Source: Eledone cirrhosa (lineage: Eukaryota). From it: a stretch of 64,000 nt of DNA. The stretch is from positions 132,928,001-132,992,000 of the forward strand of contig OZ024742.1 in assembly GCA_964016885.1 (NCBI GenBank), read 5' to 3'. The number at the start of each line of letters is the position of its first letter. The first letter of the stretch is position 1. This document shows positions 3,121 through 37,538 of the stretch, one piece after another. The position numbers and the translations under genes are program-made. The notes under the pieces are model-generated. The model was not told where the DNA came from and searched no databases. It saw only the letters and a program-made list of their open reading frames with translations.

Positions 3121-3171
<51 letters not shown>

Positions 3172-3173
<2 letters not shown>

Positions 3174-5023
3174 GATATAATTTTATCTAATGTTTAATTG
3201 ATTAATTGTTTAATTAATAATTTATCAATTCAATCCGTAGTTTAAATGTGTATGTTAGATTATTAGAATTGAGACCTATATATTATAAAAAATATATATT
3301 ATTAAAATATATATTATTAGAAAATATGATATTATTACAAAATCATATATAATTTTATTAATTATTAATTAATTATTTTAAAAAATGTGTAAGTTAAAAA
3401 TATCCGAATATTTCTAAGCCCATGGAAATTCCGAGAGTTTACAGAAGAATATTCCCTTATTTGTAATAGCAGTAGAGCGTAAAGGAAATTGCCAGTCATT
3501 TATTAATAATTTAGATAGCTCTAAGGATTAAATGCTATAAAGTTAGGATGTTAAAAAATTAAAATTTCCATCTTAATAATGTAATTAGAGTATGAATCTT
3601 ATGTTATTTTATAGCAAGTTATAATTTTATAAATCTACCTGTTATACAGTTATGACTGTTAAAACATAAATTTGTTTGCTATAACGTCTTAACATTTAAC
3701 ATTTTTTTCATAGGAATATTTCTAAAGCATAAACCATAAAAAACTCTTTCTTAAGAGTATATAATATATTTAAAGTATAAATTTAATATATATATAAATA
3801 TTTTGATATATATATATATATATATATATATTAAGCATTTGAAAAACATATAAGTATAGAAATATAAATATACAATATAAAACATGAATTATAATTTTAA
3901 GAATGAATTATAATTTTTAAAATGAATTATAACTTTAAAAAATATAAGAATATAGAAAATAAAATACACAGTATAAAATATTAATTATGAATTATAATTT
4001 CCTTATACCCATCATAGGAATTTTCAAAAAAAAATCCTTCTTCAAATCTTTCAGTACGTTTATCAAGAAAAGTTTTTCAAGAAAAACATTTTTTCAAGGA
4101 AAAATGTTCTTTTAAGAGAGTTATAAGCAGTCATATGACAGAATCTAATGAATTATAGATAGGTTTAATAAAGATGAGTTATGTATTACATTTTATATAT
4201 ATATTTAAACGTTGAGTTCAATCTATGTTTGCAAGAACTGAAAAGATTATTCGTTAAATTAACAGAATTATTACTTTTCAATATAAAGAATATTTCCTCG
4301 ATACAAAGAGCACAATTTTCAGAAGAAGCATTGAATGGAGGAGCTTTGGAGATAATATTCCAAAGTAAAGAATAGTTGGTGTTCTTTGATTTTAGGTCCC
4401 ATAGTAAATTAGATAGAGAAGTTGAAGATTTTTTATTTATATTCGTACAAGAGCATTTATGGTTATTAAAACGGGATTTAAAATCTGTGGAGGTAGATCC
4501 TACGTAATTAAATGAATTTAAATTAGTTTTTACATTACAATTATATACTATATTTTTAACTAAACAATTGTTATTTAACGGACAGTTAGATTTATCTCTA
4601 CAGTTACATTTATCAAACTTTAAGTTTCTAGGAGCCGTTTTATTCCGTTGGAAATTGCTGGGGTTATTAATGTTATTCTGGTTAGGTTATAAGTTTCTAT
4701 TATTAATTCTATTAATATTCTGCGCTAAATTACTGGTGGTTGAATACGTTAATTTTATAGTATGTCTATTAAATATTGAGTAATACCTATGTGTTCTAGA
4801 GAAGCATTTATCTAGAGCTTTAAAGAATAATTTAGCAATAGGAGTTTTAATACTTAATGAGAAAGGAGGAGCGACGCATAATATATTCCTAGTTCTATTA
4901 CTTTTTTTGTTTTTCGAATTATTGTAAGGTTTTCTATTATAGTTGTTAAAAATATGGTTAATTGTCATATCATTATTATCAATATATTTAATTTGATTAC
5001 TATATCCAGTTCTACCTAACCCT
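3172..5023 (-). mobile_element. 5'-truncated Penelope-like element (Hydra-clade-like): RT thumb/linker, GIY-YIG endonuclease, 3' region
   Basis: Minus-strand translation ~4190-5020 gives PPFSLSIKTPIAKLFFKALDKCF..FNRHTIKLTYSTT then CNCRDKSNCPLNNNCLVKNIVY..YVGSTSTDFKSRFNNH..W.II.KAPPF..CALCIEE, with an in-frame stop; (TA)n on the left flank. Confidence 0.88.
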
Positions 5024-5084
5024 TCGAACCCACATCTTTGGTTATCCGGACCACTGTGCTACCATTTACACCAAAACATCACCC

Positions 5085-5305
5085 GGGTAATGTGTTGGTG
5101 TAAATGGTAGCACAGTGGTCCGGATAACCAAAGATGTGGGTTCGACTCCCATGTACGTCAAAACTCATATTTTTCCATTTCTCCGAGTGTTCTTAACCCC
5201 ACTATCAGGCTAACTAATTTCTTTAATTTCTTTAGTCAAAATACGGCGGTAGCTTACATTTCTAATAATTTCAAACCAACTCACTGTTCCGAAAATATTC
5301 TTGCT

Positions 5306-5308
<3 letters not shown>
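5085..5308 (+). mobile_element. copy of the 270-bp tRNA-containing repeat unit
   Basis: Reverse-complement match to the tandem units at 37081-37538; ends at CTTGA followed by (TA)n, as does the 37081 copy. Confidence 0.8.
5089..5160 (+). tRNA. tRNA-like cloverleaf (pseudogene or mobile tRNA-like cassette; identity uncertain)
   Basis: AATGTGT TG GTGT AAATGGTA GCAC A GTGGT CCGGATA ACCAA AGAT GTGGG TTCGACT CCCAT GTACGTC A; A and B boxes present, 72 nt, wobble-rich acceptor stem, atypical anticodon loop; TTTTT at 5170-5174. Confidence 0.6.
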
Positions 5309-5372
<64 letters not shown>

Positions 5373-5379
5373 TATATAT

Positions 5380-5415
<36 letters not shown>

Positions 5416-6650
5416 TATATGTGTTTCTAAATGATATACTTTCTCTCTTTTAAATTTGTTTAATTTAAATTATATATATATAATTCAAATTTAAAATATA
5501 TATTGAGAGAGAGAGAAAGTATATAATTTTAGAAACACAGTATTTATTAACATATAATGCAAATTGTATTCAGGAAAAGAATATAAACAATGTTCAACCT
5601 ATTGCAATAGGGCAACTTTAGTATAATTAAAATTCCATGCATTTAACATGTATGCATGAACTTAGAATTCGGGTTCTAGTTATGGGAACTACTGTATAGT
5701 GGATGAGTCGTTTCAACACTTGCCTGTCATCGGAGAAGCATGTCAAAATTATGAAAAACATTGTTTGCCTACTAAATATGGTTTTAAAATAGTAGTGACC
5801 TCTTTTTCGAGAACAGGGGAGGCAATTACCGAGTTCCAAATTTCTCGAGGCTAGAAACTTTGAACTAGCATATGTGTAATATATGCGTGACTTAAGTTAT
5901 AAACTAACCTGTATGCATGTGACATGAGTTGTAAGCTAATTATCTAAAACTTAATTACTTTAATCGATTTTGTTACAAACGGAGATCGTAGATATTTTAA
6001 CATTCAGGGGCCAAGGGAGATAACCCTGATGATATATATTTATAAATGTCTGTGTGTAATCTAGCGTGCAAGTTATTTTGCAAATATTTAAGTCTCTTTT
6101 ATACTCTTACCAACAATAACACTCTGAACAGTTTGATAGATATTGGTTATATATTGGTTATATATTTAGAAATTGCTTCTACAAATAGAATGTTATGAAA
6201 TGAATAATAATTGATTTCTGTTACGTCGATGTGTTATTTGATTTATTAGAAACAACAACAGTAATTGAAAGTATTTAATTTCTCAATAAAGAATTTTACT
6301 TACAAAAAGTTCTACCGTGGATTGAACACAAACAGATAGCATAGTCGACTCACTATTATCGGCATAACATGTAACATTTTCTCATAAACAATCCTAAAAT
6401 ATACATGATACTAGGAGGTCAAATATTTGTAGGTGATTGGTGGAATCTATTAATGGATGTGAAAATGATTAGAAATTATGGAAATATAAGAGAGGAAACT
6501 GTAGCACATCTAAATATGTTCTCAAAGGGATTTTAACTCAGAACCCAGGTGACACAAATACAGATAGTGAATGAAAACCTTTCGAAACTTTCACCACAGA
6601 TATATACATATATACATATATAAATATATATAGAGAGAGTGATAGCTAGA

Positions 6651-9134: not shown

Positions 9135-9400
9135 TTTCTTCTCATATTGGCACAATGGCAGCAATGGCGGGTGGGTGGTAAACATGAATTAGTACAAAAC
9201 CGGCAGTATGTATCATTGACTCGGAATGAGTAATAATTGTTTCTACTTTTGGCACAAGGCCAGCAATTAACACAGTGTATTACTGGTACTTTATTTTATC
9301 GACTCCGTAAGGATGAAAGGCAGGATTTGAACTCAGAATGGAAAGGGTCAAAAATCTATGCTGCAAAGCGTGGTAACTTATACTACTAAACCACCGAATA
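9135..9400 (-). mobile_element. tRNA-derived SINE, two partial copies
   Basis: ttggcacaaggccagcaatt..actggtactttattttatcgactccgtaaggatgaaagg..atttgaactcag; same family as 52361-52575. Confidence 0.8.
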
Positions 9401-11700: not shown

Positions 11701-11714
11701 CAATGATAATAATA

Positions 11715-11900
11715 ATTGTTTCTTCTTTTGGCTAAAGACCCGAAATTATACCAGTGCATTACTAGTACTTTATTTTCTCTACCTCGTAAAGATGTGAGGC
11801 AAAGTTAACCTCGTTGGGATTTGAACTCAGATCATAAAGGGTTGTAACTCTATGCTGCCAATAATAGCCTCCGACCTTCTACCATTACTGCCAATCTATC
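11715..11900 (-). mobile_element. tRNA-derived SINE
   Basis: tgtttcttcttttggc..ccagtgcattactagtactttatttt..cgtaaagatg..aaagttaacctcgttgggatttgaactcag. Confidence 0.8.
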
Positions 11901-37080: not shown

Positions 37081-37538
37081 CAAGTGAGAATATTTTAGAA
37101 ACAACGAGCGAGTTTGAAATTATAAATGTCAGCTATCGCCGTATTTTGACTAAAGTAATTAAAGAAAATTATTTAGCCTGATAGTGGGGTTAAGAACCCT
37201 CGGAGAAATGGAAAAAAGATGAGTATTGACGTAGATGGGAGTCGAAACCACAGCTTTGGTTATCCAGACCACTGTGCTACTATTACACTAACACATCACC
37301 CGCCTTTTCCCATTCAAATTAGAAGCTATATTATTCGCAACTGTAAATGTCAAGTGAGAATATTTTCGAACAGCGAGCGAGTTTGAAATTATAAATGTAA
37401 GCTATCGCCGTATTTTGACTAAAGAAATTAAAGAAAATTATTTAGCCTGATTGTGGGGTTAATAACCCTCTGAGAAATGAAAACGATGTGTATTGACGTA
37501 CATGGGAGTCGAACCCACATCTTTGGTTATCCAGACCA
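37081..37538 (-). mobile_element. 1.7 tandem copies of a 270-bp tRNA-containing unit
   Basis: caagtgagaatattt at 37081 and 37351 (period 270); tRNA-like segment at 37227-37297 and a partial one at 37494-37538. Confidence 0.85.
37227..37297 (-). tRNA. tRNA-like cloverleaf (degenerate copy)
   Basis: GATGTGT TA GTGT AATAGTA GCAC A GTGGT CTGGATA ACCAA AGCT GTGGT TTCGACT CCCAT CTACGTC A, followed by a T6 run. Confidence 0.5.

Follow-up and report, generated by a model that had tools for sequence, protein, structure and literature searches.

The window examined here is a 64,000-nucleotide stretch of the genome of Eledone cirrhosa (GenBank assembly GCA_964016885.1, contig OZ024742.1, positions 132,928,001 to 132,992,000 of the forward strand), and coordinates are window positions unless stated otherwise. 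At 3124–5420 it carries a composite in which the 5'-truncated remainder of a Penelope-like element (PLE), putatively of the Hydra clade, is joined through a palindrome to a short non-coding unit with a tRNA-like fold. Within the unit we number bases as U1–223, corresponding to 5085–5307. The features are as follows (coordinates, strand, description), the last being a copy of the unit family that was overlooked by ARAGORN:

3124..3172, no strand: (TA)n tract, left target remnant, read from the sequence
3173..3178, minus: six nucleotides equal to the last bases of the Hydra short 3' end in its sister-subfamily form, by hexamer match
3179..4185, minus: 3' UTR of the Hydra-clade PLE family P1, incomplete, by comparison with relatives
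4186..5026, minus: 3' part of the Hydra ORF (thumb, CxCX5C linker, GIY-YIG), 5'-truncated, with one premature stop
5024..5026, no strand: 3-nt microhomology common to the PLE and the T-loop of the unit
5024..5084, minus: left palindrome arm, an inverted copy of U1–61 running in the direction of the PLE
5085..5307, plus: unit U1–223, subfamily A, with the long 3' end and without the 48-nt leader
5089..5160, plus: tRNA-like cloverleaf with A-/B-box-like loops and a non-canonical anticodon loop
5161..5179, plus: 3' side of the 17-bp stem enclosing the tRNA when the unit is full-length; T5 (5170–5174) lies within it
5308..5420, no strand: (TA)n tract, right target remnant
37082..37537, minus: second, independent copy of the family, a partial tandem of a full 270-nt unit and a 5'-truncated unit, with the long 3' end on TA

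The composite and its Hydra-type arm

The palindrome consists of two 61-nt arms (5024–5084 and 5085–5145) that differ by substitutions, with no spacer and two mismatches, just as an earlier sequence-only reading of this DNA had described it (spacerless, 2 × 61 bp at 5024–5145). The other parts listed in that reading were likewise located: the 72-nt cloverleaf matches the Rfam tRNA model at 5089–5160 (36.1 bits, above the cut-off of 29; ARAGORN, 5088–5161), which also settles the tRNA check that had been called for; the T5 run lies at 5170–5174, followed by further sequence up to the unit end at 5307 and the (TA)n; and TA tracts stand on both sides of the composite, at 3124–3172 and 5308–5420. 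Some points had to be amended. The PLE, said to be truncated at 5023, does abut the palindrome, but its match extends to 5026 and so overlaps the unit by the 3 nt of microhomology. The tRNA, said to be the head of the unit, is not, as full units have 48 nt before it that are missing in the window copy. Of the two outer ends of the composite, the short one is Hydra and the long one is the unit. Two further repeats were noted in the window, namely an imperfect AT-rich palindrome of ~120 bp immediately beyond the right TA tract (5420–5540) and a SINE-like pair, ~80% alike, at 9231–9367 and 11710–11861.

Relatives of the window PLE at 92–96% identity give a full element of ~3.9 kb (family P1) with RWR and DKT motifs, the CxCX5C linker, CxxC, CxH and a hammerhead core (CUGAUGA...GAAA) in the pLTR. 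The guess that this PLE belongs to the Hydra clade was borne out by these motifs (DKT, RWR for RWK, the linker, the hammerhead of the relatives and the TA ends), on which basis we assign 3173–5026 to a putative Hydra-clade element. The listed protein motifs, the hammerhead and TA targeting are also those given for Hydra-clade PLEs by Craig et al (2021, PMC8557442; this and the other cited papers are drawn on here in excerpt), which however describe such elements as "generally under 3 kb", whereas the family here is ~3.9 kb with a long 3' UTR and has RWR for RWK. The GIY-YIG match of the window copy is weak (Pfam E 9e-4, below the cut-off), and Pfam gave no match on a 520-aa stretch of another Hydra-type locus (L062). 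The window copy is 5'-truncated at 5026 and, as measured against four relatives, lacks 450–500 nt ahead of the short end, hammerhead included; this gap is why it has no hammerhead. Its terminal hexamer (3173–3178) matches the Hydra short end of sister subfamilies, the closest full-length relatives ending slightly differently, and the same hexamer precedes TA at 1 of the 210 TA tracts in the window and at 1 of 5,107 in other loci outside Hydra ends. Genome-wide, a 25-mer from the P1 pLTR has 44,753 exact matches. Hydra inverted pairs combine a long and a short end in 17/17 cases (minus-then-plus pairs from the first 100 matches, with one end called by eye), and the optional tail that separates the two ends is ~90 nt. 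A second Hydra-related autonomous family, P2 (L230–L243), has its own hammerhead and tail, and its protein is 40–64% identical to that of P1 in tblastn pieces. A fixed 5' end for P2 and a second unit–Hydra fusion at L229 were both rejected as query artefacts.

Among 40 scored matches to the PLE, the window copy alone carries the junction with the unit. No raw read spans this junction, the reads on 4700–5307 being mostly 85–95% alike and coming from other copies or individuals. The window junction is a one-off by-product and not the founding event of the family; the family is the finding, and palindromes of this sort are the rule in it rather than a peculiarity of the window locus.

Copies, ends and insertion pattern of the unit family

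The genome-wide search proposed for the region 5085–5308 showed it to be one copy of a high-copy, non-coding family with units of 260–271 nt. The DNA search of the 3.0-Gb genome, in which 40 of 1,550 candidates were scored, gave full-length unit copies at 94–96% identity. A motif in the 3' part of subfamily A has 2,256 exact genome matches and a 23-mer common to subfamilies A and B has 3,865 (reversed controls, 0 in both cases). The full unit measures 271 nt in subfamily A and 260 nt in subfamily B, which are ~80% alike, and reads as a conserved 48-nt leader followed by U, repeated seamlessly, with one locus (L168) holding a head-to-tail array of four units. A tandem non-coding unit of this length fits the 170–400-nt range of non-LTR retrozymes.

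Insertions were analysed in a sample defined by the first 100 matches to the subfamily A motif, taken in genome order from one contig, which gave 81 distinct loci. Inverted arrangements were found at 53/81 and a head-to-tail joint at 10/81. The 3' ends point outward in 53/53 inverted pairs, of which 45 combine a long end (U212–223) with a short one (U165–190), 7 involve another end and 1 has two long ends. Unit 3' ends peak at U183–185 and U220–223, ~38 nt apart. Outer 3' ends touch (TA)n in 121/134 cases, compared with 586/5,017 background windows (12%), and poly(A) was seen at 0/135 unit 3' ends; target site duplications are unreadable inside TA tracts. Inner breakpoints vary among copies and the two 3' ends of a pair are unequal, the inverted arm repeating the 3' region up to a fixed end of its own rather than representing an upstream part of one transcript. 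Both joint types also occur in the raw reads of two DNA runs from one study, in which the fold-back at U66/70 is covered by 25 reads with 10 starts and 18 with 8, and the 271-nt head-to-tail joint by 42 reads with 9 starts and 37 with 6. The family pattern is therefore not an assembly artefact.

Marks described for PLEs are copies in partial tandem, inversion of a 5'-truncated copy and a 30–40-bp tail that is optional (Craig et al, 2021, PMC8557442), and the tail has been linked to two internal start sites of the reverse transcriptase (RT), with the hammerhead found dispensable in vitro (Frangione et al, 2024, PMC11167929). The unit family has the features of a non-autonomous PLE on this description: inverted, outward-facing 5'-truncated copies, partial tandems and an optional tail in the 30–40-bp range. 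The proposal that a tRNA-containing unit was moved by a PLE rather than a LINE thus holds at the level of the family, with its inverted pairs, ~38-nt optional tail, partial tandems, TA targets and lack of poly(A), and the pattern named in advance as evidence against it, LINE-type tails at other copies, was absent (poly(A) 0/135, 3' ends on TA 121/134). We consider it very probable that the family is moved by PLE-type mobilisation.

The tRNA module and the retrozyme plan

Unit copies score 31–51 bits against the Rfam tRNA model, and in aligned copies the A-/B-box-like loops are conserved and the anticodon loop is variable. In the window copy position 33 is C, and a Ser anticodon is combined with a short variable loop; this non-canonical anticodon loop and isotype-inconsistent body do not fit a functional tRNA gene. 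No source isotype was found among the 16 tRNA matches listed (63 candidates scored), to which the unit is identical at 34–45 of 71 positions.

Many inner or 5' ends of copies fall within this module. Of 148 such ends, 51 are at U66–70 in the T-arm, 10 at U59–63 and 8 at U-3 to +7; the rest of the tRNA and the leader account for 4 each, and 71 lie further towards the 3' end. Exact matches to the tRNA start number only 507, compared with 2,256 for the 3' part of subfamily A. We scored the first 30 of these 507 tRNA-containing arms, some of them from the same locus: 13 end at U-1 to +7, one of these continuing into a B-type leader, and the remaining 17 extend into the leader, in most cases reaching the next unit as well. 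This near-binary outcome suggests an RNA 5' end at the tRNA start alongside templates that continue past it, and the positions of the ends point to such a 5' end in the unit RNA. The ends at the tRNA start are ragged (86 ends) and do not separate a Pol III start (near U1) from an RNase P cut (U5). We lean slightly towards the tRNA making the 5' end as a putative internal Pol III promoter; that it does so as a putative RNase P cut site is possible, with less confidence. A T5 run directly behind the tRNA should stop most Pol III transcripts, which counts against the Pol III model. For the minor cluster at U59–63, an RT stop at a modified A58 would fit, though this is speculation.

Full units carry the tRNA fold in their middle, at the end of a 17-bp stem. 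This stem forms between the last 17 nt of the leader and the 17 nt that follow the tRNA; it lengthens the acceptor stem, and T5 lies buried in it. Across 24 aligned units, 96% of the cells in this structure pair, and differences between the subfamilies within the stem change A-U to G-U or restore the pair, the changes being one-sided. Covariation in the stem was not above that of shuffles in the 24 aligned units (69/500; RNAalifold covariation term -0.35), and single copies fold weakly better than shuffles (z -0.9 to -2.1). A working hammerhead was not found in the unit, judging by core motifs: CUGAnGA is absent from subfamily A and present in 1/24 aligned units, a B copy that by eye lacks stem I. 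We also discarded the idea of a degenerate hammerhead in subfamily B, as the core is mostly CUGAGGG and no stem I was seen by eye. Rfam is uninformative on this point, having also missed the Hydra hammerhead.

The same genome contains retrozymes. P3 is a 310-nt tandem hammerhead family and P3b a related one with 2,062 exact matches, in which the core is often decayed. Both use TA targets as the unit does, occur in tandem and inverted forms, have a 36–43-nt tail and carry the ribozyme at the end of a perfect 15-bp stem that encloses it. The unit shares this plan, with a tRNA fold in the hammerhead's place. At the level of sequence, a profile of 45 unit copies gave no match to P3, and one local alignment between unit and P3, among 12 tests, beat 100/100 shuffles. 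In anchored alignments behind the 3' ends of unit and P3, 5–29 of 3,000 background windows score higher, with a register picked post hoc. The unit may, tentatively, be built on a retrozyme chassis, with a tRNA having taken the place of the hammerhead: RNase P or a Pol III start would make the monomer end, the 17-bp stem would hold the nicked or ligated circle and the Hydra RT would copy round it. We regard this as doubtful on present evidence; if true, the unit would be a small-RNA-based PLE passenger, the PLE counterpart of SINEs and TRIMp3. P3 and P3b loci were recorded at L105:237-546, L159, L272 and L291–L320, P3b copies with decayed cores being still widespread. Two further hammerhead-core repeats form inverted copies at TA (L120, L139, L193, L284; L030, L085), one of them ~430–440 nt long and in tandem.

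Proposed mechanism, probable partner and comparison with known elements

In the model that we propose, the PLE endonuclease would nick both strands of a (TA)n tract and the RT would start cDNA at two internal RNA sites, one per strand, giving a long and a short 3' end that both face outward. The majority of cDNAs would stall at the T-arm (U66–70), and those that pass the tRNA would either run off the RNA 5' end (U-1 to +7) or enter the leader and the next unit, for which the template beyond the tRNA start could be a multimer, a circle or an end-to-end jump. The arms would then be joined at their 5' ends via microhomology or snap-back. For the window, the right arm would be a full unit cDNA whose first 61 nt were copied in turn by snap-back, and the left arm a Hydra cDNA primed at the short end and joined to the unit piece at the 3-nt microhomology. 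Snap-back pieces like this one are also present in unit-only insertions (L009, L103, L134), and we find it fairly likely that the window composite arose in one event using two RNAs.

A stepwise origin is possible but less probable: the family would still be PLE-mobilised, and a unit would have landed in TA beside an older Hydra copy, with deletions later fusing the two at the 3-nt microhomology. Such an origin draws on the facts that most unit–Hydra neighbours are separated by a TA tract, that Hydra ends are very common (the 44,753 exact matches given above) and that the window PLE arm has at least one large internal gap. It fits poorly with both outer ends of the composite being proper 3' ends in the short-plus-long pairing, with the middle piece and the right arm starting at the same base as in the unit-only snap-backs, and with the layout being repeated at L163 with another Hydra-related family.

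Whether Hydra is the partner of the family beyond the window bears on the second alternative. In 174 partly overlapping locus records, direct same-direction fusions with the unit 5' of Hydra-type sequence were found at the window, L133 and L163, of which L163 repeats the window layout with family P2; L136 has the reverse order, and other unit–Hydra neighbours are parted by TA. A Hydra motif lies within 300 bp of the unit in 7 cases compared with 0.73 expected from genome density, and nearness per TA tract is 7/273 versus 4/562 (p 0.046). This modest excess per TA tract means that shared targets explain much of the nearness of unit and Hydra. Some unit ends directly abut non-PLE repeats. The partner could instead be another PLE clade or family (Neptune, Poseidon, Naiad or an unsampled Hydra family), the Hydra fusions being shared-TA accidents. 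This would accommodate the lack of 3' sequence common to unit and P1, for which local alignment scores fall within those of shuffles, and a 38-nt tail that fits the 30–40 bp of other PLEs and the 36–43 nt of the local retrozymes better than the 90 nt of Hydra. We consider it unlikely, as every direct PLE fusion seen involves Hydra-type sequence and the unit shows a weak anchored likeness to Hydra short-end flanks (68 and 22 of 3,000 background windows, register picked post hoc). In 3' sequence, the unit's likeness to P2 and to retrozyme P3 was weak and post hoc. Hydra is a reasonably likely PLE partner of the unit, and as the best explanation of the whole we think it probable that the family is copied in trans by the RT and GIY-YIG endonuclease of the genome's Hydra-clade elements.

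Dependence on a LINE, with the unit as a tRNA SINE and the inversions made by L1-type twin priming, would account for a tRNA-like part with A-/B-box-like loops and for the many copies that start at the tRNA, but is very unlikely given poly(A) at 0/135, two fixed 3' ends, an inverted arm that duplicates the 3' region and has a separate fixed end, and a conserved 48-nt leader that precedes the tRNA in seamless tandems. Least probable of all is an assembly artefact or a DNA-level satellite/MITE amplification, for although palindromes beside TA tracts assemble poorly and pairs with 3' ends out resemble terminal inverted repeats, the arms carry substitutions, inner breakpoints vary, the ends are unequal and both joint types are present in raw reads.

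Several known systems resemble the tRNA unit in part. Animal non-LTR retrozymes are likewise short non-coding tandem units with proposed PLE movement (Cervera and de la Pena, 2020, PMC7229834; Li, Clavereau and Pollet, 2026, preprint, 10.64898/2026.07.22.740005). Retrozymes carry a type I hammerhead, whereas the unit is without a working one and has a tRNA fold in the equivalent place. Sm-alpha and Sj-alpha (PMC6765202, PMC2770079) are the nearest precedent, in the excerpts used, for a tRNA in a retrozyme-like unit: they are tRNA-derived (tRNA-Gln in S. mansoni), tandem and thought to be Pol III-transcribed, and their promoter does not simply lie at the start of the mobile RNA. Unlike the unit they have an active hammerhead, and those excerpts name no PLE partner or PLE-type marks for them. 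MRC1 and other Chlamys elements are non-autonomous PLEs with pLTRs and head-to-tail copies, in a clade without canonical hammerheads; their 3' ends are generally similar to that of the autonomous partner, and PMC8557442 mentions no tRNA part in them, its one use of the term concerning selenocysteine. The TRIMp3 elements (Cassandra, Helenus and Ajax; PMC10886601) offer a small-RNA module in a terminal repeat of a non-autonomous element with a non-LINE partner, and transcripts of Cassandra begin within one repeat and terminate within the following one. TRIMp3 elements depend on LTR retrotransposons, with PBS, PPT and 4–5-bp target site duplications, and Penelope goes unmentioned in PMC10886601.

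We found no description of a tRNA-bearing, ribozyme-free PLE passenger in the literature searched, outside which lie Repbase, Dfam, subscription journals and bioRxiv supplements; the parts of PMC13282606 and 10.1101/596502 drawn on describe none either. LINEs have tRNA-based parasites in the SINEs, and LTR elements have them in TRIMp3; the unit family would fill a third slot, that of PLEs. The unit offers a compact test substrate for target and template recognition by the PLE enzyme, for the reason behind its two start sites and for the question of whether a hammerhead is needed. Autonomous Hydra families, hammerhead retrozymes and the tRNA version on the same targets in one genome also permit direct comparison. 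Repeats of this kind make tRNA gene counts too high and are probably classified as SINEs. Two other tRNA-bearing arrangements were seen among the loci. A dispersed repeat of ~1.75 kb (L215, L217–L225) has a fixed end at TA and a high-scoring tRNA gene 310 bp inside (Rfam, 53–71 bits) whose anticodon varies, and is perhaps a non-autonomous DNA transposon. L214 and L216 hold a tandem array of tRNA-Thr genes and pseudogenes.
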